Source: Promethearchaeota archaeon
Lineage (GTDB): Archaea > Asgardarchaeota > Hermodarchaeia > Hermodarchaeales > Hermodarchaeaceae
NCBI GenBank assembly: GCA_048939625.1
Contig: JBHLPH010000013.1
Span: 1-61,414 of the forward strand
DNA: 61,414 bases
Reading direction: 5' to 3'
Under the pieces are notes generated by a model, which did no database searches, was not told the origin of the DNA, and worked only from the letters and a program-made list of their open reading frames with translations. The translations under genes and the position numbers were made by a program. Of this stretch, positions 1,631-16,383 are shown in pieces. Each line of letters opens with the position of its first letter. The stretch's first letter is position 1.

Positions 1631-3109
1631 ATGAATATGACACGAAAACGGCGCGCTTCCAGTTCATCGGATTGCAATTCGGATACTCCACGTTTTGACA
1701 CACGACAGTATCAAGAATACATCCTTCAACGCATTAAGGCGCATCAAGGTCAAAACATTCTAGTAGAGTTGGACTGTGGACTTGGAAAACGAGTTCTAAC
1801 CTATAAACTTGTAACAGAACAATTCCCTGAAACCCAATTTATTATAACGGTGAACTCGTCTTCTTCGCTTCAAGAAACTGCACAATATCTCGAAGTAGAA
1901 TATGGCGGTGTTGAAGGACTAGGTGTGCTTTCTCCTCGTGTTCAAGGTCCTCGACGTGAACAACTGCTCCGTGAATCCCGCGTCGTATTATGCACCCCAC
2001 GAGTCCTCGCCAATATCCTAAAAAAAGGCAACCTACAACCAACTGACTTTGAAGGACTCTTGATCAATGAAGTTGATACAATTTTGCGACGCATGGGACA
2101 CAACCAGGTTCTCATCCAACCTTGGGGATTTCTATTAGACTTCTTTAAAGAGAACTGGATTCTGGGTCTCAGCGGAACCCTACGTGACGACCATGTGGTC
2201 TTTGATCAAGCCCAACTTCAAATTCGAGATGAACTTCAAACACTTGCAGAGTTTCTCCCCAATGTAGAACTCATCAGTATGAACGAATTGGCAGAGACTG
2301 ATTTAGTTCAATATATTAAACCCACCATTATCGATGTCGTTCCTGTAAAAGATCCAGTCATTCGAGCAATGGCTCTCATACTTGATGATCTTATCCAATC
2401 AACACGAGAAGAAATTTACAAAATTGTTCAAGAGGAATCAAGTGAGGTTCTTGGTGAACTCCCAGACTCCATACGAATGCTGCATCTAGTTCTCCACAGG
2501 CTCCCAATTCCCGAAGAACTCGCCCACCAATATAGTGGACTTCTAATGACTCGCAAATATCTCTACGGAATGACATCCAAAAGTTTTCGTCGATATTTGC
2601 ATCATCCCACTCTCAAACCCCAGATTGATGTAAACCGAATGATGAAGGATTGGCCAAAAATCACTCCCAAATCCATCAAGGTCCAAGAATTAGCCGTTAA
2701 TGCAAACAAAACAGTCATTCTTTCCTCTTATTTGAACGTGGTCACTGAAATTGATGAGCTTCTCAAGAAGAAAGGAATTCAAACCTTTCAGCTCACAGGA
2801 CGCACTCAAGACAAACAAGCTGTTCTTACAGAATTCAAACAGGCTCATCCACCTGCAGCGGTCATTCTCTCCCCGGTAGGCGAACGAGATCTCGACTTGC
2901 CTGATGCTGATTTACTTATCATTTGTGACACGGTCAATACGACTAAGACTATTTATCAGAAAATGAAACGGAGCCGCGGTGGACGAGTGTTTTTCCTTAT
3001 GTATGCTGATACCTCTGAGGTATTGAAACTTAGACGGCTCCTCGACAACATTATGCGGCGGTATCCTTGGTCAACGAAGCTAGGAAATACGAACGGATTG
3101 ATAAAGTAA
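1631..3109 (+). CDS. Hef/FANCM(Mph1)-like superfamily-2 helicase domain protein with degenerate motifs and no nuclease domain
   Basis: RQYQ (Q motif), LDCGLGKR (I), CTPRV (Ib), INEVD (II), LGLSGT (III), VGERDLDLP (V), QKMKRSRG (VI). Confidence 0.7.
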   Translation: MNMTRKRRASSSSDCNSDTPRFDTRQYQEYILQRIKAHQGQNILVELDCGLGKRVLTYKLVTEQFPETQFIITVNSSSSLQETAQYLEVEYGGVEGLGVLSPRVQGPRREQLLRESRVVLCTPRVLANILKKGNLQPTDFEGLLINEVDTILRRMGHNQVLIQPWGFLLDFFKENWILGLSGTLRDDHVVFDQAQLQIRDELQTLAEFLPNVELISMNELAETDLVQYIKPTIIDVVPVKDPVIRAMALILDDLIQSTREEIYKIVQEESSEVLGELPDSIRMLHLVLHRLPIPEELAHQYSGLLMTRKYLYGMTSKSFRRYLHHPTLKPQIDVNRMMKDWPKITPKSIKVQELAVNANKTVILSSYLNVVTEIDELLKKKGIQTFQLTGRTQDKQAVLTEFKQAHPPAAVILSPVGERDLDLPDADLLIICDTVNTTKTIYQKMKRSRGGRVFFLMYADTSEVLKLRRLLDNIMRRYPWSTKLGNTNGLIK

Positions 3110-3132
3110 CCCCGGTTCAACATGAGGTTTGC

Positions 3133-3651
3133 TTATGAGACGTATTTCAGATAACGATACCAAGTAAAGGCACTGATAACAACAATAAGGCCCAACATCA
3201 CTACTGAACCGACAATGTTCACTGGTAGGTTAATCAAGGCTTCATAAATGGGAAACATGGGAGGACTCGTAGAATAATCCCAATACGCGAATAATATCGT
3301 ACGATTAAACCACATTAAGGAAAGCATCATATAAATTCCGAACATTGAAAACACAATCTTTTCGATGTTCTTGTTCGATGATTTTGGATGGGTGCAGGCG
3401 AAGACTACAAGGAGTGCCGTCCAGACTCCAATGAGAATTGTTCCAAAATTCATTGGGACATAGGAGTTCATAATATGGATGCTAAGGTATTGTTGATTTG
3501 ACTGCAAAGCCATTTGACGCGCAAGTTCAAGGACTATGGCTTCCCAGAGAAACATCAAAACCGCGCCTATAGCAACCAAGTAGAATCCAATTCGCCATGA
3601 TGATTTTTGGACAAGAACTTCTTGAGATACAATTGAACCAATCAACCTCAT
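3133..3651 (-). CDS. Four-TM membrane protein of unknown function
   Basis: Four hydrophobic segments; shares WRxGF and THPK motifs with its neighbour. Confidence 0.7.
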   Translation of the reverse strand: MRLIGSIVSQEVLVQKSSWRIGFYLVAIGAVLMFLWEAIVLELARQMALQSNQQYLSIHIMNSYVPMNFGTILIGVWTALLVVFACTHPKSSNKNIEKIVFSMFGIYMMLSLMWFNRTILFAYWDYSTSPPMFPIYEALINLPVNIVGSVVMLGLIVVISAFTWYRYLKYVS

Positions 3652-3681
3652 TCACCAAGCTTTCCTTGTGAATTCCAGCAT

Positions 3682-4179
3682 TTATTCTGTCTTTTCAGGC
3701 TTAAGCCACTTCACCCATATTAAAACGCTCAGAGCTGCAATGAAGAATCCAACGATTCCATAAATCATTAAGGCTGCCGCTAAACTGATGAAAACCGTTG
3801 GACTCGGTGGATATGGCCAAGTAACATCGTTGATTAAAAGAACTAGTTGTGCCCAACACATAGCGATAAATAACATAACCGTAAGACCTTGTGATAACCA
3901 TTGCCAATACTGAGTGCCATATTTAGGGTGTGTGCTGCCAAAAATTACAATCATGCTAAACCACGGACCAATAAGCATGGTAATTATCACAGTAAATATT
4001 ACTCCAAAGAATTGTACATTGACGCTAAACCACCAATTAGATAAAAGAAAAGCTTGAAGTGTCAATTCAAACAAAATGATTTGGCTTACAAACAGGCACA
4101 GGATGGCAAGTGTGAGAATTAGGAATCCAAACCGCCAAGCCTTTTTTAAACCAGAGTAGACCTCTGCAGTTTTTTCCAT
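3682..4179 (-). CDS. Four-TM membrane protein, paralogue of 3133-3651
   Basis: WRFGF and FGSTHPK motifs; same hydropathy pattern. Confidence 0.7.
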   Translation of the reverse strand: MEKTAEVYSGLKKAWRFGFLILTLAILCLFVSQIILFELTLQAFLLSNWWFSVNVQFFGVIFTVIITMLIGPWFSMIVIFGSTHPKYGTQYWQWLSQGLTVMLFIAMCWAQLVLLINDVTWPYPPSPTVFISLAAALMIYGIVGFFIAALSVLIWVKWLKPEKTE

Positions 4180-4295
4180 TCATCTTCCTCTCCAAAGAGT
4201 ATTGATCTAGTCATCCTAAAGGCATGATTCCAATTAACTCTTTGTATTACAAGGATTTAACAATTCAAAACAATGTGTGAAACTGTGAAACAATT

Positions 4296-4928
4296 ATGGA
4301 TAGCGGAGAAATTCACCCTAACAATGACCAACGATCAACGCTTCCAGTATATCCTGTATACATCTTTGAAAGAACCTGCAAAGAAATCTTCAGCTTCTGC
4401 CTGAAGGAAGCATCAGGGCCCTCACGAAGTGAAGCACTTGGAGTCATTCTTGGATTTCGACGTACTTGGAACGGAAAAAAATACATTCGCGTTACTGATT
4501 GGGCGACAGGTCATGTCGAAGCCAGTCTCGCACATGCTCGCTTCACACCTGAAGGTATTCTCGAATATCGCCTTGCACTCCATGATCGCTATGGAAATAA
4601 TCCTCATGCCCCTCGAGTCGTTGGGCTCTGGCATTCTCACCCTTTTGGAGGTGACCCCCATTTCTCCTCAACAGACCTAAACACCTTCTTCAACACTCCT
4701 TTCTGTGCAGAAGGAAACATCTTCTTCTTAATTGATCCAATTAGCCAAATCTTCAAAGTGTATATGCTTCGCTCCCGCCCTGAAGAACCTGGGCTTCAAC
4801 TTGACCAAGTCGAATGGTGTACTTATCGACCCTCTGTTCCCCTTGGTGAGGACCTTTCACGTGAAGACACTGATATGACGAATGAGGAGGAACCTTCCCA
4901 TGACAAAGAAGAAACCAACTCCGGTTGA
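4296..4928 (+). CDS. JAB1/MPN+ (JAMM) metallo-isopeptidase
   Basis: EALGVILG and WHSHPFGGDPHFSSTD give the full E...HxH...S..D JAMM motif. Confidence 0.9.
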   Translation: MDSGEIHPNNDQRSTLPVYPVYIFERTCKEIFSFCLKEASGPSRSEALGVILGFRRTWNGKKYIRVTDWATGHVEASLAHARFTPEGILEYRLALHDRYGNNPHAPRVVGLWHSHPFGGDPHFSSTDLNTFFNTPFCAEGNIFFLIDPISQIFKVYMLRSRPEEPGLQLDQVEWCTYRPSVPLGEDLSREDTDMTNEEEPSHDKEETNSG

Positions 4929-5766
4929 TCTCCAATTCTTCGAAAAAGACCAACATGATCGCACGCGTCGGTGGCTAGGTAAAACCAACCTGGAGAAAAT
5001 CCAGCAATCGAGCGTTCTCATGGTGGGGGCTGGTGCAGTAGGGAATGAAGTATGTAAGAATCTTGGACTTCTTGGAGTGGGGAAAATCATTGTAGTTGAC
5101 CCTGACAAGGTTGCTGCTTCAAATCTGAATCGTTGTGTCTTTTTTAGACCAAGTGACCACGATGTCACGTTTAAGGTCGATGCGATTGCTGAACGATTAC
5201 CCAATCTTGCAACAGACACAATTGTCGAACCACATCCTGTTCCTATTCAAGATGCTCCAGAATCCGTATGGAACGTGGATTTAGTGCTTGTTGGAGTCGA
5301 CAATCATTATACTCGGTATTTATTGAATGCAAAGAATCTTAGTTTAGCCCCACCTCTTCCTGTTATCAATGGGGCGATGGGAAAGGACTTCGTCTCTGTT
5401 GAGGTCTTAGCTCCACCTAACACAGCATGTTTAGTCTGTTCCTGGAGTAAAACTTTCGTTGACCATGTAGTAGCCAATGAAGTTCGAACTCGCTGCGATC
5501 CCTTCTTCGTAAGGACTATTCCTCAGTTTCCGATGATTAGTTTTATCACATCGATTGTTGGAGCGGTGATGTCATGGGAAGCTACCAAGGTACTCGTAGG
5601 ATTAGAGAACTGGAAGCAAACTGGAGAATGGCAAGATGAGTTCGAACCTGCTGTTGGCCGGTTTATTCAATATAATTTGCACCACCATAAGGTTCTGACG
5701 GGACCCATCTTGCCAAATCCGAGATGTGCTGAAATTTTCTGTAGAGACAAGCGGAAGCACGCCTAA
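4900..5766 (+). CDS. Ubiquitin-like activating enzyme E1 (ThiF/UBA fold)
   Basis: VGAGAVGNEVCKNL, DPDKVAASNLNR, VGVDN, Zn sites CLVC and C-terminal CAEIFC, candidate catalytic Cys in RTRCDP; overlaps the JAMM gene. Confidence 0.9.
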   Translation: MTKKKPTPVDLQFFEKDQHDRTRRWLGKTNLEKIQQSSVLMVGAGAVGNEVCKNLGLLGVGKIIVVDPDKVAASNLNRCVFFRPSDHDVTFKVDAIAERLPNLATDTIVEPHPVPIQDAPESVWNVDLVLVGVDNHYTRYLLNAKNLSLAPPLPVINGAMGKDFVSVEVLAPPNTACLVCSWSKTFVDHVVANEVRTRCDPFFVRTIPQFPMISFITSIVGAVMSWEATKVLVGLENWKQTGEWQDEFEPAVGRFIQYNLHHHKVLTGPILPNPRCAEIFCRDKRKHA

Positions 5767-5770
5767 CAGA

Positions 5771-7375
5771 CTAGATTAAGCCTATGGTTTTCTGCCAATA
5801 CGTGGAGGTTGGTTTATGATCCGCCCAGAGTCGAATATTCAACGTGACCTTAGGTGCTGCGGTGGGCATTTGGATGTTTAACTGTAGGTTTATCGGGGAT
5901 TGTAAACGGGGTGCAAACGGCTCTATAGCTACGACCTGATCCATTAAGCCATCAGAAATAGTGGCGGTCATTACCATCTGGTCTAACGGATGTTGCCGGC
6001 TTGTTATGGGAATCAATGCCACTTTTAAGGGAATTTTGTTACCTCGAGGTATAGCGTCAGGAATTTGAACTTGGATTTCAGCTGGCGCTGCCTGAAGCTT
6101 GGGGTGCACTGACTCAGGTACACTAACTACGCGTTTCACTTTCCATCCTGTTTGTATTTGTGGTTGAGACCGTCCACCTTTTTTTCCATCAATGCTAGAT
6201 GTTTGATAATGCCAACTTACTTTGAATTCTTGACGAATTCGTGGGTCCATCCAATTTCCAATGATTAGAGGTATATGACGGTTTGTAACTCCTAGTAGCC
6301 CCATGGCTCCATGCCATGTCGGATCAACTGGAATCCATTGCCCACGAATCCAAACCTGACTCCACGCATGGCGTTCCCAGGCTTTGCCATCGAAGGCGTA
6401 TCCTGCTTCGAGACGTGCGGGAATTTTATTTGCTCGACATAGTGCTGTGAACAATGCTGCATATTCTGTGCAGTCGCCCACGCGTTTCTCAATAGCGTAT
6501 GCTGCTCCTCTTTCATGTTCTTGGCGAACATACCGCATTTTATTTGTAACCTTTTTCATGGCTGCTTGGATGTATTGGATAGGTGTGACGTTTTCTTCAG
6601 CGATATCTCGGGCTAAATCTTTGATGAGGTGATGGTGCGATTCGATGAAGTTTTCAGGTTGAGTAAATTTCATTATATTTGCTGGAATCGAGGTTGAAGG
6701 GTTGGTTGTTGGTAGAACGTAACGAATTGCCCGATTTCGAACCAGGACTGTGTATCCACAGGTGAAGGTTTCTCCTGCGGATAACTTTTTACACAGAAAG
6801 CGGAACCAGCGATTGCCGATCAAATCATTTTGTTGGACTCCAGTTCGTGGCGAGAGCTTTACGTTTAGTATATCTTGGCGTGGAGGTAATGAAGGGGGCG
6901 AGGCGATATTGACTTGCATATTGTTAATTGGACTCTGCATCGTATTCGTGACCGTTGCAGAATAATTGACGCGATGAACGACGATGGGGGGATGTCCACC
7001 TTCTAATAAAAAACATCCCAATACAAAGTGGTCCTCTGGAGGTCCTTGATGCGGGTATTTATCCACAGCTAGCTTAATGCGCGTTTCTTGAAATGCTACA
7101 AGAATCGTGTAAAACCCTGAAAGGAGCATTTTGTCCAAAGGCAATGCAAATTTACCTATATTTGCTGGTCCAAATCGGAAAGGAATCTTACTGATTGTGC
7201 GACCAAAGGGATCGATGATGTATAAAGCTCCACTATCAATTTTGATATTAGAACCAGCTTTACTTTTCCGTGTGAGTTGGATGGAAATCTTTTGACCTGC
7301 TTTTACGCAGGGAATTCCGTCTCGACGTGTTTGTGCGCTGATTTTCAGAGCGACTGGGAGATTACTCGTCATCAT
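5771..7375 (-). CDS. Transglutaminase-like (Cys-His-Asp) protein with beta-rich flanking domains
   Basis: GDCTEYAALFTALCRA, HAWSQVW and WIPVDPTW; ATG at 7375/7372 overlaps the upstream stop. Confidence 0.85.
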   Translation of the reverse strand: MMTSNLPVALKISAQTRRDGIPCVKAGQKISIQLTRKSKAGSNIKIDSGALYIIDPFGRTISKIPFRFGPANIGKFALPLDKMLLSGFYTILVAFQETRIKLAVDKYPHQGPPEDHFVLGCFLLEGGHPPIVVHRVNYSATVTNTMQSPINNMQVNIASPPSLPPRQDILNVKLSPRTGVQQNDLIGNRWFRFLCKKLSAGETFTCGYTVLVRNRAIRYVLPTTNPSTSIPANIMKFTQPENFIESHHHLIKDLARDIAEENVTPIQYIQAAMKKVTNKMRYVRQEHERGAAYAIEKRVGDCTEYAALFTALCRANKIPARLEAGYAFDGKAWERHAWSQVWIRGQWIPVDPTWHGAMGLLGVTNRHIPLIIGNWMDPRIRQEFKVSWHYQTSSIDGKKGGRSQPQIQTGWKVKRVVSVPESVHPKLQAAPAEIQVQIPDAIPRGNKIPLKVALIPITSRQHPLDQMVMTATISDGLMDQVVAIEPFAPRLQSPINLQLNIQMPTAAPKVTLNIRLWADHKPTSTYWQKTIGLI

Positions 7376-7757
7376 TTGGGCCTGCTGAATCTGTATGAGG
7401 ACTGGATTCCGGTCCTTCTTCATCTGGCAGAATAACTACCTTTCCACTTGGTTGTGTTACACGTCTACGTGGAACGTCAGCAAGAATGGTCACACTGGAG
7501 CTTCTTTCTAGTTCTGTAACCTCTGAAGAGTCACGTGGTCCCAGAAATCGTGTAAAATGTGGGGAATGAGGTTCACTGCCTTGAATAATCGCGCCAGGGC
7601 AAGTGTTCTGACCGGTTTCAAGAAAAAGGGTTCGGCAGTTTGGACAAATATAACTGCCACAGGTTGTGCATATCCACCACTGGCTCCTTGCTTCAACAAG
7701 CGAAGTTTGAGTATCACAAACCATGCATTTGAAATGAGACGCTCCGTGGACACTCAA
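7362..7757 (-). CDS. RING-like Zn-finger protein with a disordered acidic tail (candidate E3)
   Basis: CMVC...CTTC-x4-CPNC-x11-CP...H; start overlaps the upstream stop. Confidence 0.7.
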   Translation of the reverse strand: MSVHGASHFKCMVCDTQTSLVEARSQWWICTTCGSYICPNCRTLFLETGQNTCPGAIIQGSEPHSPHFTRFLGPRDSSEVTELERSSSVTILADVPRRRVTQPSGKVVILPDEEGPESSPHTDSAGPNDDE

Positions 7758-7966
7758 TCTTCCTGTTCCTCCTGGTTAGCAGGTTTTTGAATTCGATGTA
7801 CCTTAATAGAAAAATGTGGAGAATAATTCGGTGGGCGTTCTTCCTCAAAGGGAATTTCCCTCTCTTGTAAGATTATAATGCGATTCTTCTTCGGCTGGTC
7901 TATTGCGGATTGGTCTTCATTATCAGATTCCTGCTTTTCTTCCTTCTCAGGGGGAGTATCCGACAT
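7754..7966 (-). CDS. Small acidic, probably disordered protein in the Ubl operon
   Basis: Fills the gap between the E2 stop (7969) and the Zn-finger start with 2-bp spacing and a 4-bp overlap; shares SPHF and V/I-x-I-L motifs with its neighbours. Confidence 0.65.
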   Translation of the reverse strand: MSDTPPEKEEKQESDNEDQSAIDQPKKNRIIILQEREIPFEEERPPNYSPHFSIKVHRIQKPANQEEQED

Positions 7967-7968
7967 AA

Positions 7969-8742
7969 CTAGTTCTCCTTCGAATCCTCTGCCTCATCAA
8001 GAATCCGAACACTTGAGACCTTCTCTGATGCATCCAGAACCTTGGGTGATCTTACAGTGGGTTTCTGTTGTTTTTGCTGAGGACCAAGAATCTGGACGCG
8101 TCCTCGTCGAGGAGTTGCTGGTGATCCCAATTGATGTCGGGTCTCCCAGAGGCGATCAAGAGTTTCTACAATATTGTTCGTGTTCTGCTCATACCATGCC
8201 ATTGCTGTGCTGTTAAGCCCATGGTCGGATTGAAACTGAGATGGCGGTTCCACACGATCCGGTTTCAGTAAAACAAAGAAGGGGAGATCTTCTAAAATCC
8301 GGTCGAGTTCACCACGAACCGAATAACACGCATGACCAGTCCCACTGGCTGCTAATCGGGGATGAAAAAGCGGTGTCTCAGCGGCAGGGCGAATGGTTCC
8401 GATATTTTGAGGATATTCACGGGGTAAATCAAAAACAAACCGATGTTCATATCTGATGGCAGTTTCATCTGTCAAAGAACGGGGTTGCCGAATTATCCCT
8501 GGGAGGTTCCGTATAACGAACCGAATTCGCTTGTATGCCCCGTCTCGATACCTAGCGATGATTGCCACAGAAAAATCACGATTGCTCCACATGGTGTTCT
8601 CACGTATGGGAGGGTCTGGATTCCAACCCCTACGACCATACAAATTATTCATTGTATCAAAGAATGTTTGGATTTGGGTTTCCACACGGGCGTTGAAGAG
8701 TTCTGTTGAGAAGACTGGTCGGGTCATGGTTGGATCCCTCAT
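7969..8742 (-). CDS. Ubiquitin-conjugating enzyme E2 (UBC fold)
   Basis: FVFDLPREYP, TPLFHPRL, GHAC (catalytic Cys) and LNSTAMAWY follow the UBC pattern; alternative start at 8727. Confidence 0.8.
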   Translation of the reverse strand: MRDPTMTRPVFSTELFNARVETQIQTFFDTMNNLYGRRGWNPDPPIRENTMWSNRDFSVAIIARYRDGAYKRIRFVIRNLPGIIRQPRSLTDETAIRYEHRFVFDLPREYPQNIGTIRPAAETPLFHPRLAASGTGHACYSVRGELDRILEDLPFFVLLKPDRVEPPSQFQSDHGLNSTAMAWYEQNTNNIVETLDRLWETRHQLGSPATPRRGRVQILGPQQKQQKPTVRSPKVLDASEKVSSVRILDEAEDSKEN

Positions 8743-8771
8743 TCACCCATTCATGGGTCAGATCTGAAATA

Positions 8772-9092
8772 TTATTTTCCCACTTCTGGAACAACATCAA
8801 GGAGGAAGAATTCATCGTCGGTAATCTTAGGCTCAAGTTCTCCAAAGGTTACTCCTGGACTTAGGCGAGTTGGTTCAGGAGCTTTGCGAATTAGGACGAA
8901 TTCTGCTCGTTGATCACCGATTTTCGCCTTCGCCCAATCGTCGATGCTCACTCCCTCATCACGGGCTTGTTGGACCAAAGTGCGGATAACCTCTTCAACT
9001 CTAGTATCCTCGTCAATGCCAATTCGAAATTCCTTTTGGCGGGGTTCAACGTCGACGATGATTGAGCGCCAAAAACCTTCTTCGTTACTCAT
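8772..9092 (-). CDS. Ubiquitin-like (beta-grasp) modifier precursor ending VG-K
   Basis: Ubl-like pattern IGIDEDTRVEEVIRTL, FVLIRK, LSPGVTFGEL, ITDDEFFLLDVVPEVGK; AGGTGA SD; first gene of the E2 operon. Confidence 0.7.
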   Translation of the reverse strand: MSNEEGFWRSIIVDVEPRQKEFRIGIDEDTRVEEVIRTLVQQARDEGVSIDDWAKAKIGDQRAEFVLIRKAPEPTRLSPGVTFGELEPKITDDEFFLLDVVPEVGK

Positions 9093-9334
9093 GGCTAATC
9101 ACCTACAAGGTCAGGGTTATACCATCCACTTTAATTTTACTCGATGCTTAGGCGACTTCCTGCCCTTCTTTATTTGTGAAAGAGAATAGGTCGGATCAAA
9201 ATTCCAGATAAATGGCGCCCAGTCCTCGATTGGAGTGAAAGTTTAAGAGTCACGGTCTAGTTGGACTAAGTGTACTTGGGCACCAATAACAAAGGCGTCT
9301 GCTCAGGATAACCTGCGGGAGCTCATAACGAATA
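9093..9334. promoter_or_regulatory. Divergent promoter region shared by the Ubl operon and the SMC operon
   Basis: 242-bp gap between head-to-head genes; GAAAGTTTAAGA (BRE/TATA-like, +, about 9237-9248) and AAAATTAAAG (-, about 9129-9138). Confidence 0.5.
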
Positions 9335-12232
9335 ATGAACACTAGACATGAGACACCACTTTCTACCTCACAAGTCGTATTCCGTAGCATCCATCTAGTG
9401 AATTTTGTAATTCATCGTGATACTACAATTAAATTTGATACCGCTCCTGTTGTGCTAATCACTGGATCAAATGGAAGCGGAAAAACTCTCATTCTAGATG
9501 CACTCCTCCTTGCCATAGGTATTGAATCCCGTCGAGCTCAACGTCAGCGTAACTCTGCCTTCATTGGGCGCTTTGGTAAATATGCTGAAGTAGAATTATT
9601 ACTGAATAATTTTCAACTTAATGGACGCCGTGTTCTGAGGAGTCCTGATCCGGCACTCGCAAAGGTTCTGGACACTGATGAAGTGTCGATTCGTCTCCGA
9701 ATGCATGACACGAATCGCATTTCTTATTGGGTAAATGGGAAGCGATCAGTTAATGGACACCAGATTGCCCGAAAAGATATTCGAAAACTCTTCCAAGCTG
9801 CTGGTGTCTTTGGTGATTCACCCTTAGCAGTCACCGAAGCCGAAACACTCGACCATTTTGCATCTCAATCTCCGCGAAGAAAATTCGAAACTCTGTTGAA
9901 TGAAACCGGACTTAGGAATTGGATGGAAAAACTTGAAGAAGCCCGACTGCTTGTATTGCAAGCAAAAGCGAACGTCAAGCCACTCGAATACAGAATCCGC
10001 CACGAAGAACAACGACTTCAAGTATTGAAAGCCGCTTATGAAGCTTTTCAACAAAAGCAGCAACTTCTACAGCGACTAAAAGAGCTTGATATTGAAGCAG
10101 CATGGGCTGAGGTTGCCTATCGTGAAACGCTTGCAAATCAACTCCAATCACAAATCTCTGTACTTGACCATCAACTTGAAACTGAAAATGTAAAATTAGC
10201 AAAATTAGATCAACGTAAAGCCGATCTAGCTGACAAGTTGACAGCGATTGAAAAGAAACGTGAAAAACTTCATTCGAGAATGGATTCACTTCGCGATGCG
10301 CAAATGCAAGCTCAGGGTCACCGACAGGGATTGGAAAACGAACTTAAGGCCTTGCAGTTTCGGACCAAACGTTATTCGAAACGGCAAAAGCCTCCTAAGA
10401 CTAAGATTGAGACGCTTCAAAACGAATTAACGGCATTTGTCACTGATCGAGATAGTCTCGATGATGACCTTGCCCAAATCCGACAAGATATCGCATCTAC
10501 AGAAGAAGTTCTCTTTACTCAACCTCAACGTTATCCACACTTTGAGGAAACCGTTCTTCGCGCTTGCATTCGATACCGCTCCGAATTGGATAAGTTGGCT
10601 CTCTCCGATTCAGTGATTGGCCCATTATTCACGCTTATCCGAATGAAACCTGAATATTCCCAATATGAAACCGCAGTAAAGTTAGCATTAGGTCGGTACA
10701 CATACGCCTTTATCGCCTTGAATAGAGATGTCTTCGTTGAAGCAAAGAACCTCTACGACCGGTTATGGCTTCACGAAAGACCAGATCTTGTCGTTGCTCG
10801 TACGAATCCTACAACTGCGATAACGAAAGATCGACCCGCTGTCTCCTCACCAGTGATTGGCTGGGCCGCTGACCTAATCGAAGGGGATGTTTACGCCATC
10901 AGCTTTCTTAGCCGAGTTGTAAACACTGCCATCGCTGAAGAAGGGGCTGATCCCAACATTCTTGTGGATGCTTCTCAACAACTCAATGGGAACATTATCA
11001 CAAGCGAGGGCTCAAGTCATTATCTTCGCATTGGGGCTTTTGCACGACCTCCACGCCCTGTAACAGTCAACTTAGATGTCACACTCCCTGAACTGGGATT
11101 GGTCCAAGATTCTGCTGATGTCCGTCGCCAACTCCGAGAATTCCGGGAACGAGAAGCGAAGTTGATGCGAGATCGTATGCGGCTCAACTCAGAAATTAGT
11201 CAGCTGCGATCCACACTTCAAGACTTGCAACAAGATTCTGCTGGACCTCTCTCTGCTGAAGAAAAAAATGCGATCATTTTGGATTCTCAGCAGCGCGAAT
11301 CGGAACTTCATCAACAAATGCTAGAACTTGATACTCAATGTGATGCCTTAAGTCAAGAATATCAAGATTGCAATTCGGATTTATCCCCCCTGAATTCCCA
11401 ATTGCAAAAAATTACCAGTCAAATCCAAAGCGTGGAATCTCGACGCTCAAACCGTCAAACAATAATCACGCAGATTTCAATCGAACTTCACCAACGAGAA
11501 GATGAAAACGAACATCTTACGACTCAATTGAAAGAATTTCGAAAAGCTGCCAAATTGCTAGGGGAACGGCCTGAAGTCGTGCGAGAACCCACTCCAGTTC
11601 GTGAAGAGCAAATCCAGATTCAAGCCATGATTGAAACTATCACAGCTACATCTGAAGATCGACAAGTCTTTGAAGAACAAGAAAAAGTCGTTTCGCAGTT
11701 ACAGGAATACCTCAAACAACGTCAGCAACACTTAGAAAATCTCATGACGGACGTGGATCGCCGGCTTCTCGAATGGCGGCGCCAACTCGAAGAAATGGTC
11801 GAAACGCTTAATCATCGGATGAACCAGTTACTTAGTCATTTTCTCAAACAAGTCAAATTGCTTGTTCGTTTTCCTGATGAACCAAGTCGCGCAGAACTGC
11901 ATCTCCAATTAGCCATTAATCGTAAAGGAGATTGGCGTACTTATCAGGAAATGTCGGGAGGTGAGAGGGTCCTAGCGACTCAGACTTTCATTTTAGCACT
12001 TCACACCTTGGTTAAGAGTCCCCTACATGTGATTGATGAGTTTACTCAACGACTTGATGAAGCTAGCCGAGCAGCGATTCTCGGTGTGGTTCAGCGTACC
12101 TTAGATTTGACTCAACAAGACGCCTTGATTCATCCTCAATTTCTTCTTATGGCTCCCTCCACTGTTGGCTTACAAATTCCAGAGACAATGCATCACGTGG
12201 TTCTAATTAAAGGACAGGTGAAAACCAAATGA
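9335..12232 (+). CDS. SMC5/6-like structural maintenance of chromosomes ATPase
   Basis: Walker A GSNGSGKT, two coiled-coil arms, hinge VIGPLFTLI...ALGRYTYAFI, signature MSGGERV, Walker B VIDEFTQRLD, Pro at the H-loop position (QFLLMAP). Confidence 0.88.
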   Translation: MNTRHETPLSTSQVVFRSIHLVNFVIHRDTTIKFDTAPVVLITGSNGSGKTLILDALLLAIGIESRRAQRQRNSAFIGRFGKYAEVELLLNNFQLNGRRVLRSPDPALAKVLDTDEVSIRLRMHDTNRISYWVNGKRSVNGHQIARKDIRKLFQAAGVFGDSPLAVTEAETLDHFASQSPRRKFETLLNETGLRNWMEKLEEARLLVLQAKANVKPLEYRIRHEEQRLQVLKAAYEAFQQKQQLLQRLKELDIEAAWAEVAYRETLANQLQSQISVLDHQLETENVKLAKLDQRKADLADKLTAIEKKREKLHSRMDSLRDAQMQAQGHRQGLENELKALQFRTKRYSKRQKPPKTKIETLQNELTAFVTDRDSLDDDLAQIRQDIASTEEVLFTQPQRYPHFEETVLRACIRYRSELDKLALSDSVIGPLFTLIRMKPEYSQYETAVKLALGRYTYAFIALNRDVFVEAKNLYDRLWLHERPDLVVARTNPTTAITKDRPAVSSPVIGWAADLIEGDVYAISFLSRVVNTAIAEEGADPNILVDASQQLNGNIITSEGSSHYLRIGAFARPPRPVTVNLDVTLPELGLVQDSADVRRQLREFREREAKLMRDRMRLNSEISQLRSTLQDLQQDSAGPLSAEEKNAIILDSQQRESELHQQMLELDTQCDALSQEYQDCNSDLSPLNSQLQKITSQIQSVESRRSNRQTIITQISIELHQREDENEHLTTQLKEFRKAAKLLGERPEVVREPTPVREEQIQIQAMIETITATSEDRQVFEEQEKVVSQLQEYLKQRQQHLENLMTDVDRRLLEWRRQLEEMVETLNHRMNQLLSHFLKQVKLLVRFPDEPSRAELHLQLAINRKGDWRTYQEMSGGERVLATQTFILALHTLVKSPLHVIDEFTQRLDEASRAAILGVVQRTLDLTQQDALIHPQFLLMAPSTVGLQIPETMHHVVLIKGQVKTK

Positions 12233-13020
12233 TTACTAATGACACTTCCGCATTCCTTCGAGCGTTTCCACGCCGCAAAGCTTGGTTTGACACCTTCCAG
12301 CATAATTACAAACATAACCGTATTACACGTTATGGAATGAAGAGCGTTGTAATCACTCTCTGGAATCTAACAAAGAAATATGAAGTAGCCCTTAAACAGC
12401 ATGATGTTGTACCAGTGAAAGAAGCGGAGATTGACCGTGAAGAAGTCGCCGATGCATTTCGTGTTCTTGATACGCCTTGGGAAAGAAACCTCGATGGCCG
12501 CTTTTACCACACACTGGCCAAAATGCAGCACAACCGCGACTCACAATTAGCTGCACCTGAAATTGCACCTGAAGAATGGATTTCTCAATTTGCTACAGAG
12601 GTGAAAAGGCGAGCCACGCCTCTTCTGTTCCTAGTTAACCAAGACCGGACCATCCCCCCCTTCGATTTACCTCCAGGGGATACCCCAGTCACCATGGATG
12701 AGGCTCCCTCTACTGAAGATCGCCAAGCTATGCAAAAGCATCGGATATTCTATGATGAGATAACAATCAAAACGCTTGATGCACGTCGAGCTTCAATTCT
12801 GAAACGGCTTAAAGGAAAACGGTACAGCTATACTGCATTAGCAGAGATACTAACCAATTGGGAGTTAGATTTACTAAGTCAAATGGTCCGTGATAACATA
12901 CTTCCTGCCACATTTGAAAAAACAGCAATCATATTTCGGAATCCCCCATCACAATCCAATCCGGTTTTGACTGCGGTAGCTATTGCTGCGAAAAAGCATG
13001 AGGAGGTTCGATCGCAATGA
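12229..13020 (+). CDS. Putative kleisin (Nse4/ScpA-like)
   Basis: ATGA overlaps with both SMC and KITE genes; helical N-terminus, Pro/acidic linker, and C-terminal winged-helix-like segment ILKRLKGKRYSYTAL...LLSQMVRDNI...AIIF. The family call rests mainly on position and layout. Confidence 0.55.
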   Translation: MITNDTSAFLRAFPRRKAWFDTFQHNYKHNRITRYGMKSVVITLWNLTKKYEVALKQHDVVPVKEAEIDREEVADAFRVLDTPWERNLDGRFYHTLAKMQHNRDSQLAAPEIAPEEWISQFATEVKRRATPLLFLVNQDRTIPPFDLPPGDTPVTMDEAPSTEDRQAMQKHRIFYDEITIKTLDARRASILKRLKGKRYSYTALAEILTNWELDLLSQMVRDNILPATFEKTAIIFRNPPSQSNPVLTAVAIAAKKHEEVRSQ

Positions 13021-13664
13021 CCTCGAACCCCACCTCATCGCACCCAGGACCCTCATCTGGTGAACAAACCGAGGAAGAAGAATACGAACAACGCCATCTT
13101 TTAGGGCAACTCTTTGCTGCCCTTACTGCTCGCTTTCGCAATGAGGAAGGACAACTCAGCATTGGAGTGAAGCGACAGGATTTACTTGAAGCTCTTCATG
13201 TCAATAAGGTCGGACTAAGCCGTTTACTTGATTTACTTCGACAACAGATCGCTCCATTGGGACTGGAATTAGTAGAATACCGATTAAATCGAGATACACT
13301 CTATTGTGTCCGAACCCTATATGGTGTTCCAGGAGAACTCACCGATCCTGAATATGCTGTCCTTGGAGTCATCATTTCAACAGTAGAAAGAGCCAGCAAG
13401 AATCGTAGACCCCGACGAGTAGCTACAAAAGAAATTGAAACCATTCTCGTTGCTCGAGGTCGCCTTTCACGATATCAACTAGATAAAATCATGCGGCGTC
13501 TCATTGAACTCGGTTATCTTACACGTACAACGAAACGGATTGCATATGGTCCACGATTAGAACTCGAATTTGATTCTGAACGACGTGAAGCCATCGCTAA
13601 TGCTGCAACCCTATATCTTGCAGGAGCCATCACAGACAAGGAGGAAGAATCGAATGAAACTTGA
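13017..13664 (+). CDS. KITE subunit (Nse1/Nse3-MAGE/ScpB-type tandem winged helix)
   Basis: IAPLGLELVE (WH1), and IMRRLIELGYL...YGPRLELEF (WH2, GPR..E motif of Nse1/Nse3). Confidence 0.75.
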   Translation: MTSNPTSSHPGPSSGEQTEEEEYEQRHLLGQLFAALTARFRNEEGQLSIGVKRQDLLEALHVNKVGLSRLLDLLRQQIAPLGLELVEYRLNRDTLYCVRTLYGVPGELTDPEYAVLGVIISTVERASKNRRPRRVATKEIETILVARGRLSRYQLDKIMRRLIELGYLTRTTKRIAYGPRLELEFDSERREAIANAATLYLAGAITDKEEESNET

Positions 13665-14115
13665 CCTCTCAACTGTTGGCATCAGTTGTGTAGCCTGTGG
13701 CTCCCGAAGCACACTGGAACAGGCAATCCACGATGGTTGGCACCAATGCCTTCGATGCCAGTTCTTTATTGATCCTCAATGCCTACAAATTGTCAAAAAT
13801 ACCATGGGTGGTGTTTGTCCATCATTCAGCCAGGGTGTCTCTAGACACCTTATCCAAGAGGCTGATATTCCCTCGGAACAAATCCTCATTTTTGTGAAAG
13901 ACCAATACCAAAAGGGTCGCGTAGGGACCATCGTCGACTCGCTCTTCTACACCAAACCTTCCTATCTCGAAAAACCGCGACACGAAAATCCACAACAATC
14001 TGACGCCGAAGAAGCTTTGACCCGTGAAGAAATCTGGCAACGGTATGGACTTGTCTTGGTACAACGGGCACAAGGTAAATGGAAAACTTGGGAAAAAGTG
14101 GGGAGCACAGGATAA
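13654..14115 (+). CDS. RING-like Zn-finger protein, last gene of the SMC operon
   Basis: CVAC...CLRC-x4-DPQC-x11-CP...H; ATG at 13654 after GAGGA, overlapping the KITE stop. Confidence 0.7.
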   Translation: MKLDLSTVGISCVACGSRSTLEQAIHDGWHQCLRCQFFIDPQCLQIVKNTMGGVCPSFSQGVSRHLIQEADIPSEQILIFVKDQYQKGRVGTIVDSLFYTKPSYLEKPRHENPQQSDAEEALTREEIWQRYGLVLVQRAQGKWKTWEKVGSTG

Positions 14116-14116
14116 T

Positions 14117-15103
14117 TCAGATTAACAGTTCTTCCCCTAACTCCAATTTTGCTAGAATTTTATCCACCAATTCACGGGCTAATTGTTTAGTATTTTTAGA
14201 TTCTGTAACAGGTTCATCCTCGATATCCGCAATGAGTTGAGGTAAGCCAGCAAGTTTTCGTATGATACCCGAAATTGCGTGCTTCGCTACTGATACTTCC
14301 GAGCCTCCCGATAAGAGAACAACCAAGTGTCCGGAACACACTTCTTCCGCGGCTTGAAGTAAGATGTCGGTCATCGCTGGAAACGCCCGAAGGGAGAGGT
14401 TAAACCCACCATAATCCAAAGCGTGAGCGTCATGTCCCATATTCCATAGAATCATATTTGGTTGGATTCGACGGGCCCAAGGAATCACCAATCGTCGCAT
14501 CGCTTCAACAAAAGTTTCATCGCTACTATTACTGGGAAAGGGAACATCCACATGGCGCAGGGTTACGGTATCAAAGCTTTCGCGAAAACTAGCTTCGAAA
14601 TTCAGGTGGTATACTCCTTCGTCGTCACCAAGTGTATCCCGTGTGCCATCTCCGGGATGGGGATCAGTATCCACAATGAAAAATCGTTTGACTCCATACT
14701 TCTGTTGGAGCTGTCGAACAAGTAACGCTGAATTATTGTAATAACAAAAGCCCCAGAATGAGTCCCGACTCGCATGATGACCAGCACACCCAGTAAAGGC
14801 AAAGGCGTTCGCCGCCTCTCCGCGCCAAACAGCTTCTCCCGCTCTCACTGCAGCTCCCCCCGAAACTAGGGACGCAGGGTCGTAACCTGATCCTTTCACG
14901 CGTTTGATATGATTTGGTGTATGAACCGATAATAATAGCTCCTCTTTTACTTCAGAGGCTTGTTCTACTTTAACTGAAGAAGACGATAAGGTGCCTGTCT
15001 GCTCAAGGTAATCGAAAGCTGGTTGCACTCGACCAGCCAGAACCGGGTATCCTTCAACCGCCATCAAAGGATGATAAATTACCAGAGTTGGCTTCTTTTT
15101 CAT
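14117..15103 (-). CDS. Histone deacetylase superfamily (Zn-dependent) protein
   Basis: GHHA...GFCYYNN, DTDPHPGDGT and GHDAH motifs; SGGS in place of EGGY. Confidence 0.88.
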   Translation of the reverse strand: MKKKPTLVIYHPLMAVEGYPVLAGRVQPAFDYLEQTGTLSSSSVKVEQASEVKEELLLSVHTPNHIKRVKGSGYDPASLVSGGAAVRAGEAVWRGEAANAFAFTGCAGHHASRDSFWGFCYYNNSALLVRQLQQKYGVKRFFIVDTDPHPGDGTRDTLGDDEGVYHLNFEASFRESFDTVTLRHVDVPFPSNSSDETFVEAMRRLVIPWARRIQPNMILWNMGHDAHALDYGGFNLSLRAFPAMTDILLQAAEEVCSGHLVVLLSGGSEVSVAKHAISGIIRKLAGLPQLIADIEDEPVTESKNTKQLARELVDKILAKLELGEELLI

Positions 15104-15174
15104 CACAGGTCACATCCAAATACAAGGCAACAAAGGATTTAACAGGATATGATGTTCTACTCAACAGCTTCAGG

Positions 15175-16383
15175 ATGGGAAAAATTTTGGAGATTCGAAA
15201 AATCACCAACAAAGAACGAAGTACGCTGATGGATCTATATCGATATGCCTATACCGAATGGACGGATCAGCCAGTGAAAGATGAAGAACTAGACGAAATT
15301 ATTGTCGAGGAGACATTGGGTATATTTGATAATGGACAACTGGTGTCATCTCTTCGCATTCATGATTTTCAGCAATCCATCCGAGGGATCTTGAAAAACT
15401 GCGGAGGTGTTGCTGGAGTGGCTACCTACCCAGAAGCTCGAACGAAGGGGTATGTTCGTCAGTTGATGCGGGCAGGATTCAAGCAGATGCACGAGGATGG
15501 ACAATCTGTCAGTATGCTTGATCCATTCAAACCGAGTTTCTATGAGAAATTTGGATATGTTACCGCAAATGCCCCCTACATAGTAGAAGCACCAATCAAT
15601 CATCTCCAAGCGTCGAACCTCGAATCCTCTTCCTCTGAATGGACCTATGAGCGGCTTCGAGCGGTCGAGGTCCAAGAACCCTTTCTCAAATTTATTCGAG
15701 AGGTGGGTCCTAAGCAATACCACGGCTTTATCATTTTCAGAACGATAACACCCGCGATGTGGAAACAGCGCGTAAAAGACAGTCTGGTCGTCTTCATTCG
15801 ACATAAGGGGAAAATCCAAGCGGTGTGCAGGTATCGAATCAAAGGTGAACGTAGCTCAGGGCGTTGGCAGGCTAATTTAACAGTCATAGATAGTCTCTGG
15901 CGTACCCGCGAAGCACGGAATCACCTCTTCTATTTTCTATCACGACACCAAGATCAAATTGACAATATAATCATTCACGCTCCTTTTGAAACGAAAGTTG
16001 AACACTGGTTCAAGGATATTCGACTCAAGGTAGATCGTAAAACCCCCTGGATGGTTCGAATTGTTGATGTCATCAAAGCTTTCGAAAAACTTCCAGGGGT
16101 AGGTGAAGATATCATTACCATTGAGGTGTCCGATGCTGACTGTCCTTGGAATCACGGAATATTCTCCCTGACATCCGAAAAAGGCTCGCTACATCTCGCT
16201 AAAAGCTCAGGGCACCCCGTTGTAAATGCTTCTATTGAAGCTTTATCCTCTCTAGTGTATGGCACCCAACCACTAGAAGAACTCGAATTTGAGGGTAAAC
16301 TCACAATTACCGAGGAATGGGCTAGACATACCCTGCATCGATGGTTTCCCCCGCTCCCCCTGTATAATGTTGTATACTTTTAA
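15175..16383 (+). CDS. Eis-like GNAT acetyltransferase with C-terminal SCP2 domain
   Basis: VAGVATYPEARTKGYVRQL, FYEKFGY, MVRIVDV and DCPWNHG motifs; aromatic C-terminus. Confidence 0.88.
   Translation: MGKILEIRKITNKERSTLMDLYRYAYTEWTDQPVKDEELDEIIVEETLGIFDNGQLVSSLRIHDFQQSIRGILKNCGGVAGVATYPEARTKGYVRQLMRAGFKQMHEDGQSVSMLDPFKPSFYEKFGYVTANAPYIVEAPINHLQASNLESSSSEWTYERLRAVEVQEPFLKFIREVGPKQYHGFIIFRTITPAMWKQRVKDSLVVFIRHKGKIQAVCRYRIKGERSSGRWQANLTVIDSLWRTREARNHLFYFLSRHQDQIDNIIIHAPFETKVEHWFKDIRLKVDRKTPWMVRIVDVIKAFEKLPGVGEDIITIEVSDADCPWNHGIFSLTSEKGSLHLAKSSGHPVVNASIEALSSLVYGTQPLEELEFEGKLTITEEWARHTLHRWFPPLPLYNVVYF

Follow-up and report, generated by a model that had tools for sequence, protein, structure and literature searches.

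The eukaryotic Smc5/6 holocomplex is built from Smc5-Smc6, the kleisin Nse4 and the kite proteins Nse1 and Nse3, with a variant RING on Nse1 and with Nse2 as an SP-RING SUMO ligase. Archaeal relatives have already been published as SMC5/6-related SMC-kleisin-kite operons of TACK and Asgard archaea, where they are described as three subunits (van Hooff et al., bioRxiv 10.1101/2024.01.07.573240; Yoshinaga and Inagaki, PMC8665677), and the preprint presents the archaeal kites as being without the Nse1 RING and that RING as a eukaryotic innovation (10.1101/2024.01.07.573240). A eukaryote-like ubiquitin operon has been described separately in Caldiarchaeum and Asgard archaea, encoding ubiquitin, an E1, a UQ_con E2, a small RING protein and Rpn11 (PMC5654768, PMC6043591). 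Here, an Asgard (Hermodarchaeota) archaeon appears to carry a second, Smc5/6-type complex with its own RING-like zinc subunit, encoded beside a private ubiquitin-like (Ubl) tagging kit. As with the published archaeal operons, an Asgard genome has, in addition to its canonical SMC, a second one whose gene shares an operon with those of a presumed kleisin and an Nse1/3-like kite. The locus differs from them in that a RING-like gene always follows the kite gene and that a full Ubl pathway is linked to the operon in four Asgard families. We found no paper describing the linkage of an SMC5/6-like operon with a Ubl kit.

The window, that is the whole 61,414-nucleotide stretch of DNA that was analysed, contains eleven tightly packed open reading frames at positions 4296-14115, confirmed by an ORF check on the sequence. 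They form three arms, JAB and E1, then Ubl-E2-small acidic protein-RING-like-transglutaminase-like, then SMC-"kleisin"-kite-RING-like, and the ORF coordinates bear out the preliminary description of 11 contiguous genes in these arms with a 242-bp divergent gap. The close spacing it reported also holds, with overlaps of 4-62 bp or gaps of at most 29 bp inside the arms, and the convergent E1 and transglutaminase-like genes have stops 4 bp apart. Its gene labels stood to differing degrees: JAB, E1, transglutaminase-like and SMC are supported by Pfam, the E2 by profile, the kite by fold, the RING-like proteins by fold at low Z and the Ubl by a Val-Gly tail and its position, whereas the kleisin is placed by position alone.

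The SMC gene (9335..12232, + strand, 965 aa) matches Pfam SMC_N (E 1.4e-21) and also shows a weak match to the hinge. A profile built from 11 family members was run against all PDB chains, and the best solved chains were those of Smc6 at 137.8 and 133.9 bits, the latter end to end, as a ranking by score and not a phylogeny with eukaryotes; for yeast Smc6 against the profile, 8-949 aligned to 82-1083. Lower scores went to a Pyrococcus Smc head construct (109.6 bits), Smc4 (97.7), Smc5 (84), Smc3 (70), Smc1 (64) and Smc2 (58). The genome's canonical SMC, of 1199 aa, lies with ScpA on another contig, and the gene at 9335..12232 is, judged by its sequence, a second SMC of SMC5/6-related type. A single SMC gene of the SMC5/6-related type is present in the locus, and each genome gives one such match, so there is no Smc5 + Smc6 heterodimer pair, and the single gene presumably forms a homodimer.

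The gene at 12229..13020 (+, 263 aa) overlaps both the SMC and the kite genes by 4 bp and lies between them in every lineage, including Planctomycetota. Its product is presumed to be the kleisin from this position; Pfam, the PDB profile search and Atlas gave no family match, and there was no detectable similarity to ScpA or Nse4, with hhalign against the genome's own ScpA also negative. The protein at 13017..13664 (+, 215 aa) is, on the fold of its model (pLDDT 82), a tandem winged-helix KITE of the Nse1/Nse3 type. Its best structural match (VIA) is Nse1 (7dg2_A, Z 11.4, rmsd 3.1 over 161 residues), and it matches chain 7qcd_D of the Smc5/6 holocomplex at Z 10.0 and full-length ScpB at an rmsd of 7.9-8.9. 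Foldseek matches include ScpB, Nse1, Nse3, MAGE, MukE and JetB at E values of 1e-5 to 1e-2, with ScpB, Nse1 and Nse3 at 1e-5 to 1e-3. With Smc6 as the best solved SMC match and Nse1 as the best structural match of the kite, the likeness to Smc5/6 proposed earlier is well founded.

The last gene of the SMC arm encodes a RING-like zinc protein (Zn protein 2; 13654..14115, +). Because alignment with its orthologues begins only at residue 29 of the longest ORF, translation probably starts from the ATG at 13654 rather than from the TTG at 13570, which gives a protein of 153 aa and an 11-bp overlap with the kite stop. Every lineage, even those that lack the Ubl kit, has this gene 3′ of the kite, and it appears to be a fixed part of the SMC operon, coding for a fourth subunit. 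The protein family has eight conserved zinc ligands with PHD/variant-RING-like spacing, and the window's protein has Asp at the fifth Cys ligand of its orthologues. The fold, confidently modelled over residues 1-90, is probably RING-like, as the best 50 VIA matches are mostly RING, U-box, ZZ and other RING-like zinc domains with Z of only 3.3-5.2; the Nse1 RING is among them at Z 3.6 and 3.5, level with many other RINGs. Foldseek returned nothing significant, and none of the 72 profile hits showed a kite-RING fusion or a link to the Nse1 family.

Taken against eukaryotic Smc5/6, the two share an SMC closest to Smc6 by profile, a kite closest to Nse1/Nse3, a RING-like domain encoded right after the kite (the Nse1 domain order) and a tie to Ubl conjugation. 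In contrast to the eukaryotic complex, there is one SMC gene and one kite gene here, with no Nse2, Nse5 or Nse6, and Pfam scans found no Nse2-like SP-RING among the locus proteins. The RING-like domain is also a separate polypeptide here, likened to the Nse1 RING by fold and gene order. The modifier, E1 and E2 here are private, divergent and co-encoded, whereas the eukaryotic ligases draw on the general ubiquitin or SUMO of the cell.

The Ubl conjugation kit includes the JAB/JAMM metalloprotease (4296..4928, +, 210 aa), which matches Pfam Prok-JAB (E 9.9e-6) and PADLOC JAB models and contains an HxH...SxxD motif. It is predicted to deconjugate the Ubl and to trim its tail, and in the Heimdall, Asgardarchaeum and Planctomycetota loci its gene is directly 3′ of the SMC-arm RING gene. 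The ThiF-type E1 (4882..5766, +, 294 aa; Pfam ThiF, E 1.4e-34) has as its closest solved relatives the active adenylation domains of UBA6, UBA1, UBA7, UBA3 and UBA5, with ThiF/Uba4 ranking lower. The protein at 8772..9092 (-, 106 aa) is a candidate ubiquitin-like modifier, from its invariant C-terminal Val-Gly (10/10 orthologues) and its place, always between E1 and E2 or immediately 5′ of E2. Val-Gly is the last residue pair in seven of the ten orthologues, with K, IK or F after it in the other three; the window's Ubl has one trailing Lys. The Ubl had no match to the Pfam ubiquitin model, and its profile search found no relative among solved structures.

The neighbouring E2 (7969..8742, -, 257 aa) is of a divergent UBC type. 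It has no Pfam match and falls below the UQ_con threshold, and all 60 PDB matches listed for its family profile, of 70 matched, are UBC E2 enzymes (best E 0.0063), with the alignment spanning the active site (PxxYP...HP[N/R]...Cys). HPR and Cys139 are invariant in the family, and the tail is of low complexity. The same genome has canonical UQ_con E2s on a separate contig (C45), and the Ubl pathway encoded here is therefore a dedicated one. Like the archaeal ubiquitin operon, the locus co-encodes a Ubl, E1, E2, RING-type protein and JAMM protease; unlike that operon, its E2 and Ubl are unmatched by the Pfam UQ_con and ubiquitin models, and the set includes a transglutaminase-like protein and is linked to an SMC operon.

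Three further genes complete the Ubl arm. The small acidic protein (7754..7966, -, 70 aa) has no Pfam match, has a conserved IxIL-ER[DE]...PPN core and is encoded directly 3′ of the E2 in Hermod and Heimdall loci. The second RING-like protein (Zn protein 1; 7362..7757, -, 131 aa) shares its Cys/His spacing with Zn protein 2 and has [RK][IV]xI[IL] motifs in its tail. It cross-hits the genes of Zn protein 2 in tblastn (down to E 6e-12) and in phmmer (1e-7 to 1e-4), and on these similarities the RING-like proteins of the two arms are paralogues. The transglutaminase-like, papain-fold protein (5771..7423, -, 550 aa; Pfam Transglut_core, E 3.4e-23) may start instead at a later Met near 7375. Its gene follows Ubl-E2 in the Hermod, Asgardarchaeum and f20 Heimdall loci and is ~6.5 kb downstream in the f21 Heimdall loci.

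Structure prediction of the complex, proposed with the original reading, was run on E2 residues 1-205 with SMC-arm RING residues 1-95. The pair scored 0.63 against 0.00 for the best control. Among solved complexes 58 of 80 attain this mark, compared with 2 of 110 mismatched pairs, although the pass may stem from resemblance to solved E2-RING pairs. Three runs share at least 97% of contacts, with partner pLDDT of at least 85, and the interface sets helix 1 and the YP loop of the E2 against both zinc loops and the central helix of the RING. The SMC-arm RING is thus predicted to bind the E2 through the canonical E2-RING surface.

The linkage of the two gene sets was followed through related genomes. 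In Hermodarchaeota, the divergent arms are shared by 13 species within the genus and 4 species from the sister genus. Heimdallarchaeota (6 genomes) carry SMC-kleisin-kite-RING-JAB-E1-Ubl-E2-acidic protein as one row. "Ca. Asgardarchaeum abyssi" has SMC-kleisin-kite-RING-JAB-E1 in a single row, and in "Ca. Asgardarchaeum" Ubl-E2-transglutaminase is at a separate locus. The genes flanking these Hermod-, Heimdall- and Asgardarchaeum-type orders differ, and because the linkage is kept through three gene orders with different flanks, it is more than local synteny; the gene-neighbourhood check on which the earlier proposal had staked itself therefore came out in its favor. Of 400 Asgard genomes, 32 have the E2 and 68 the SMC5/6-related SMC; both occur in 31 of the 32 E2 genomes, and all four Asgard families with the E2 also have this SMC. 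Since other lineages have rearranged these genes and still kept the two sets together, the connection of Smc5/6 with ubiquitin and SUMO ligases in eukaryotes may be older than eukaryotes themselves.

The pairing extends to bacteria, again with different flanking genes. All three Planctomycetota MAGs with the E2 also match the SMC5/6-related SMC strongly (E 1e-241 to 1e-182). SMC-kleisin-kite-RING-JAB reaches the contig end in two MAGs and E1-Ubl-E2 begins at a contig end in one; these ends fit together, and the whole module apparently moved into Planctomycetota as a unit. On one complete planctomycete scaffold, an SMC-like gene lies far from the E2 genes.

We consider it fairly probable that the locus is one functional system of two modules, an Smc5/6-related SMC complex and a private Ubl conjugation pathway, with the SMC complex recruiting E2~Ubl. 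The basis in hand is the gene identities (kleisin and Ubl fold excepted), the conserved linkage and the predicted E2-RING interface; we infer the cascade order, the targets, the DNA dependence, the biological role and Ubl modification as the "output" of the SMC complex. The first module would probably consist of an SMC homodimer, the kleisin, the Nse1/Nse3-like kite and the small RING-like zinc subunit, the kite and RING gene pair having what may be the layout of eukaryotic Nse1 split in two genes. In the second, which would run apart from the genome's canonical ubiquitin E2s, the JAB protease would take a one- or two-residue cap off the Ubl and also reverse conjugation. The E1 would adenylate the C-terminal Gly of the ~103-aa Ubl and the Ubl would pass to Cys139 of the E2, with a RING-like protein directing ligation. 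The second RING-like protein, the small acidic protein and the transglutaminase-like protein would be accessory factors, and may be substrate adaptors or a second isopeptidase. Once loaded on DNA, the SMC complex would recruit the charged E2~Ubl through its RING-like subunit and then tag itself or nearby DNA-bound proteins, as a possible prokaryotic counterpart of the Smc5/6-Nse1/Nse2 ligase axis for chromosome maintenance.

It is unlikely, in our estimate, that the modules are co-regulated or co-inherited without the SMC complex being a ligase platform, so that the SMC subunits are only substrates, their amount or turnover being set by the Ubl pathway, or both modules work in one shared process, for example the response to DNA damage, with no direct contact between them. 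The Ubl arm's own RING-like protein, encoded near the E2, could be the sole E3, and the Ubl-E2-transglutaminase unit is able to occupy a separate locus. Several other Asgard families also have SMC-kleisin-kite-RING without the Ubl kit, and the SMC complex therefore does not need it. However, JAB-E1 is directly 3′ of the SMC-arm RING gene in three lineages, that RING is predicted to dock on the E2's canonical surface, and the RING-like proteins of both arms are paralogous, all of which favor the SMC complex as a recruiter of E2~Ubl.

An anti-plasmid or anti-virus role, with the SMC sensing foreign DNA in the manner of Wadjet or Lamassu and a Bil/CBASS-like Ubl arm tagging invader proteins, strikes us as distinctly improbable. 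The locus does resemble Bil and CBASS Cap2/Cap3 in co-encoding E1, E2 and JAB in a prokaryote (in Bil also the Ubl), and Wadjet (JetABCD) and Lamassu (LmuABC) in that an SMC-family ATPase is accompanied by a presumed kleisin and by a kite, which has JetB as one of its structural matches. In PADLOC, the SMC partly matches LmuB (2.4e-25) and JetC, and the CBASS-type JAB and E1-E2 models match the JAB and E1, but the JAB and E1 matches are weak, E2, Ubl, kleisin and kite go unmatched, and the models concerned are generic SMC, JAB and E1 ones. Unlike in Bil and CBASS, E1 and E2 are separate proteins here, with RING-like proteins and an SMC complex and without a cyclase or effector. Neither JetD nor LmuA, nor any other nuclease or effector gene, is found among the 11 genes or their neighbours, which are housekeeping genes and form no defence island. 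The SMC has a hinge and Smc6-like length, aligning with Smc6 end to end, and the kite is nearer Nse1 than JetB (Z 11.4 vs 8.0). Defence genes are usually patchy in distribution. The SMC, in contrast, is present in 17/18, 11/12 and 28/31 genomes of three families and syntenic across species, a housekeeping-like distribution. Of the two roles first suggested, chromosome maintenance and defence against mobile elements, it favors the former, even though the module seems to have been transferred between Asgard archaea and Planctomycetota, as defence systems frequently are, and eukaryotic Smc5/6 restricts extrachromosomal DNA (PMC10586767).

Chance adjacency of two unrelated systems is extremely improbable: synteny within Hermodarchaeota alone proves nothing, because the flanking helicase and deacetylase genes are likewise syntenic there, but the linkage outlasts the change of gene order and flanks, and the SMC accompanies the E2 in 31/32 Asgard and 3/3 planctomycete genomes.

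The two modules of the proposed system are separated in the window by the 242-bp divergent control region (9093..9334), between the Ubl arm and the SMC arm. Its mean column identity is 79% across 10 species, and in the same species it contains two near-invariant AAAGTT(T)AA blocks in opposite orientations, which would seem to resemble TATA/BRE promoter elements.

The locus consists of 11 tightly packed open reading frames (ORFs) between positions 4296 and 14115 of the window; the preliminary description had claimed this 11-gene packing, and the ORFs are indeed present at those positions. Two plus-strand genes, encoding a JAB protein (4296-4928; Pfam Prok-JAB, E 9.9e-6) and an E1 (4882-5766; Pfam ThiF, E 1.4e-34), converge on the end of a minus-strand row. 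This row begins with the putative ubiquitin-like protein (Ubl; 8772-9092), assigned by its conserved C-terminal Val-Gly and its place next to the E2, and continues with an E2 (7969-8742), identified by its family profile against the PDB, an acidic protein of 70 amino acids (7754-7966), a RING-like protein (7362-7757), whose zinc-ligand spacing and sequence match those of the second RING-like protein at the locus, and a transglutaminase-like protein (5771-7423; Pfam Transglut_core, E 3.4e-23). The other arm, on the plus strand, encodes an SMC protein (9335-12232; Pfam SMC_N, E 1.4e-21, with a weak hinge match), a presumed kleisin (12229-13020; 263 amino acids), a kite protein recognized by its fold (13017-13664; 215 amino acids), and the second RING-like protein, also assigned by fold. 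The latter ends at 14115. Because its orthologues align no earlier than residue 29 of the longest ORF, translation probably begins from the ATG at 13654, which overlaps the kite stop by 11 bp.

The two arms are separated by a divergent gap of 242 bp (9093-9334), which runs from the Ubl start to the SMC row and is unusually conserved, with a mean column identity of 79% across 10 species. It contains a near-invariant GTnAAAGTT(T)AAG motif twice, in inverted arrangement: one AAAGTT(T)AA-type block precedes the Ubl start by ∼35-48 nt, the other precedes the SMC start by ∼175-190 nt. The two blocks are probably a pair of BRE/TATA promoters of a single type and thereby hint at common regulation. Elsewhere in the genome assembly (2.3 Mb, 83 contigs, 88% complete), a canonical SMC (1199 amino acids) with ScpA is found on a different contig, and contig C45 carries a close pair of canonical UQ_con E2 genes (2220-4519). 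The locus thus supplies the genome with its second SMC complex and likewise with a second Ubl pathway, a private one. The C45 pair is probably part of the eukaryote-like ubiquitin system that has been described in Asgard archaea.

A profile of 11 SMC family members scored highest in the PDB against human-type Smc6 (137.8 bits) and yeast Smc6 (133.9 bits, in a single end-to-end stretch), followed by Smc4 (97.7), Smc5 (84), and then Smc3, Smc1 and Smc2, so that the likeness to Smc5/6 is one of PDB score ranking rather than of position in a tree with Smc1-6. A word-based protein search with the SMC found only Hermod-type relatives and one canonical SMC. The kite model (pLDDT 82) is a tandem winged helix that, of 48,161 chains compared, resembles Nse1 most closely (7dg2_A; Z 11.4, rmsd 3.1, 161 residues), followed by a chain of the Smc5/6 holocomplex (Z 10.0), with ScpB, MukE and JetB giving lower scores or poorer superposition. 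With Smc6 at the head of the SMC profile and Nse1 at the head of the kite fold matches, the SMC5/6 likeness proposed in the preliminary description stands. The name kleisin for the 263-residue protein reflects its constant place between SMC and kite, and the label is positional only: Pfam gave no match for the protein or 10 family members, nor did a PDB profile search, the ESM Atlas, or hhalign against the genome's own ScpA. Around residues 160-175 of the SMC, a conserved Thr-Glu-Glu-Gly (consensus LAFTEEGT), including a Thr167 invariant in 11 of 11 sequences, appears in our reading of the alignment at the position of the canonical Q-loop Gln.

The Ubl kit resembles a conjugation system. The nearest solved relatives of the E1 are the active adenylation domains of UBA6, UBA1, UBA7, UBA3 and UBA5, with ThiF and Uba4 behind. 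The E2 has no Pfam match. With a profile of 10 orthologues, the best 60 of 70 PDB matches are all UBC enzymes, and the alignments run over the PxxYP...HPN...Cys core; every one of these orthologues has HPR and Cys139. The putative ubiquitin-like modifier is conserved (84-46% identity of orthologues to the window's copy) and has the Val-Gly ending in all 10 orthologues, at the very C-terminus in seven and followed by a one- or two-residue cap in the other three, which include the window's copy. No solved relative was found with the Ubl profile. The presence of an E2, a JAB and RING-like proteins led us to reject a sulfur-carrier reading of E1 and Ubl. Repeated [RK][IV]xI[IL] motifs, often with acidic residues behind them, occur in the acidic protein and in the tails of both the E2 and the Ubl-arm RING-like protein; these motifs (7362-8110 in the window, and in orthologues) are conserved from Hermod to Heimdall genomes and may be Ubl-binding (SIM-like) or beta-strand docking motifs.

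The SMC-arm RING-like protein has eight conserved zinc ligands (C-x2-[CH]-x16-C-x2-C-x4-C-x2-C-x11-CP-x8-H), with Asp at the fifth ligand position in the window's copy. Residues 1-90 are modelled with confidence, and the top 50 structural matches are mostly RING, U-box, ZZ and other RING-like zinc domains, the Nse1 RING among them, at Z scores of only 3.3-5.2; neither Foldseek nor a PDB sequence profile search gave a significant match. The Ubl-arm RING-like protein has the same ligand spacing, and the two sequences cross-match. None of the 72 matches of a RING-like profile search over 1.84 billion proteins is a kite-RING fusion. In the longer matches, the domain lies C-terminal to coiled-coil, SWIM-like zinc or Ras-like GTPase parts, without a Nse1 Pfam match, and Pfam recognizes the domain in none of 10 scanned proteins. 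Such varied N-terminal parts fit a modular E3-type domain, and the proteins that carry it may form an unrecognized family of modular E3-like proteins. Divergent RING-like orthologues were found on contigs that are too short or in unrelated genomic context.

A complex prediction paired residues 1-205 of the E2, its core, with residues 1-95 of the SMC-arm RING-like protein, its N-terminal domain. The best of three controls scored 0.00, whereas the pair scored 0.63 (runs 0.58-0.66), a mark that 58 of 80 solved complexes attain, as do 2 of 110 mismatched pairs; the runs share at least 97% of contacts, with a partner pLDDT of 85 or higher. On the E2 side, the predicted contacts involve helix 1 (9-26) and the YP loop (111-112), and on the RING-like side both zinc loops and the central helix, with the invariant Cys55-Pro56 among them. 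Since these contacts make up the textbook E2-RING surface, the score may stem from likeness to solved pairs. We take the prediction as support for both assignments, E2 and RING, and for a possible contact, rather than for binding itself.

We consider it fairly probable, with each functional step inferred, that a DNA-loaded Smc5/6-like complex serves as a ligase platform through its RING-like subunit. The RING-like subunit would bring in the charged E2~Ubl, the Ubl tag would be placed on the SMC complex itself or on neighbouring DNA-bound proteins, and JAB would mature the Ubl and remove the tag. Alternatively, the Ubl-arm RING-like protein could be the sole E3, with the SMC subunits being substrates only or merely co-regulated with the Ubl pathway, which we regard as unlikely; the predicted E2 contact is with the SMC-arm protein.

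The ligase-platform reading draws on linkage across lineages. Within Hermodarchaeota, 13 species of the genus and four of the sister genus preserve the full layout, which alone proves little because they also preserve the helicase and deacetylase genes on its flanks. In ‘Ca. Asgardarchaeum abyssi’, where the SMC is 33% identical to the window's, the row reads KaiC-HTH-SMC-kleisin-kite-RING-JAB-E1, then fructose-bisphosphatase, with Ubl-E2-transglutaminase on a separate contig. Six genomes of Heimdallarchaeota (SMC ∼30% and E2 ∼35% identical to the window's) have one co-directional row, SMC-kleisin-kite-RING-JAB-E1-Ubl-E2-acidic protein, flanked by subtilase and histidine ammonia-lyase-type genes, with the Ubl-arm-type RING-like protein and transglutaminase-like genes ∼6.5 kb beyond it. 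The linkage of the SMC with all or part of the Ubl kit thus holds in all three lineages despite differing flanks, and chance adjacency of the two modules is effectively excluded.

Among 400 Asgard genomes, the E2 family occurs in 32 and the SMC family in 68, and 31 of the 32 E2 carriers have both, a count that is no statistical test because the genomes are kin; SMC was found in all four E2-bearing families. The largest family lacking the Ubl kit has the SMC in 28 of 31 genomes. Families of this kind retain SMC-kleisin-kite-RING; the fetched stretches contain no Ubl gene, and the E2 query used here detected no E2 in their genomes. This makes the RING-like gene a constant fourth operon member and the Ubl kit a losable addition. 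This distribution, with an SMC near-universal within families, and the housekeeping-like neighbours led us to reject a defence island as the main reading; with no effector at the locus either, a defence system seems rather improbable.

Outside Asgard archaea, three of three Planctomycetota MAGs with the E2 family match the SMC profile (E 1e-241, 1e-235 and 1e-182), compared to ∼1e-6 for their canonical SMC against the Asgard-type profile. In two of them, SMC-kleisin-kite-RING-JAB runs into a contig end, and one of these two also has E1-Ubl-E2 starting from a contig end, the pattern that an assembly break within a single operon would leave. A 5.97-Mb planctomycete scaffold has an SMC-like gene alone, with two E2 genes unlinked to it. 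The Planctomycetota genomes with the Asgard-type SMC-kleisin-kite-RING-JAB set are high-GC, and its presence there points to inter-domain transfer, in either direction. When 14 SMC sequences are placed in an unrooted tree, the Ubl-linked lineages fall into more than one clade (moderate support, 88-89).

Smc5/6 is the least understood eukaryotic SMC complex and, to our knowledge, the only one with built-in ubiquitin and SUMO ligases; we know of no explanation of why, or when, ligases came to sit on an SMC motor. Archaeal SMC5/6-related SMC proteins have been published (PMC8665677), and TACK and Asgard operons are reported to pair such an SMC with a Nse4-like kleisin and a Nse1/3-like kite, where the archaeal kites lack the Nse1 RING and the RING is regarded as a eukaryotic innovation (10.1101/2024.01.07.573240). 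In contrast, the kite gene here is always followed by a RING-like gene, and several Asgard lineages add their own E1, E2, Ubl and JAB. A full-text search that covered few subscription journals found no paper tying such an SMC operon to a RING-like gene or an E1-E2-Ubl-JAB set, and the preliminary description likewise knew of no account of the linkage.

It is possible, if tentative, that a ligase-bearing Smc5/6 predates eukaryotes, with the RING-like subunit of an Asgard ancestor having recruited a dedicated E2~Ubl to complexes loaded on DNA, and that eukaryotic Nse1 (kite-RING) and the ubiquitin/SUMO dependence of Smc5/6 descend from it. If so, the Nse1 fusion and this dependence would be inherited rather than eukaryotic inventions. 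The locus and its relatives sit in the closest archaeal kin of eukaryotes, and they bear on eukaryogenesis because they suggest chromatin-linked Ubl signalling before the nucleus. The system is small and self-contained, with 8 to 11 genes and without the rest of the eukaryotic ubiquitin network, and with its genes a coupling of Ubl ligation to DNA loading could be reconstituted in vitro.

Two neighbours of the locus deserve mention. At 14117-16383, a histone-deacetylase-family gene converges on the SMC arm, 1 bp from the RING-like stop, and is joined by an Eis-like GNAT acetyltransferase; every Hermod genome has both of them behind this arm. One other Asgard genome has a GNAT from that Pfam family (Acetyltransf_9) immediately upstream of its SMC gene. 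By analogy, these neighbours may recall the cohesin acetylation cycle, or may be there by chance. An XPB/ERCC3-like helicase gene (1631-3109), shortly upstream of the JAB-E1 arm in all Hermod genomes, has a 32%-identical homologue ∼6 kb upstream of the ‘Ca. Asgardarchaeum’ SMC operon, and may be a loose tie to DNA repair.
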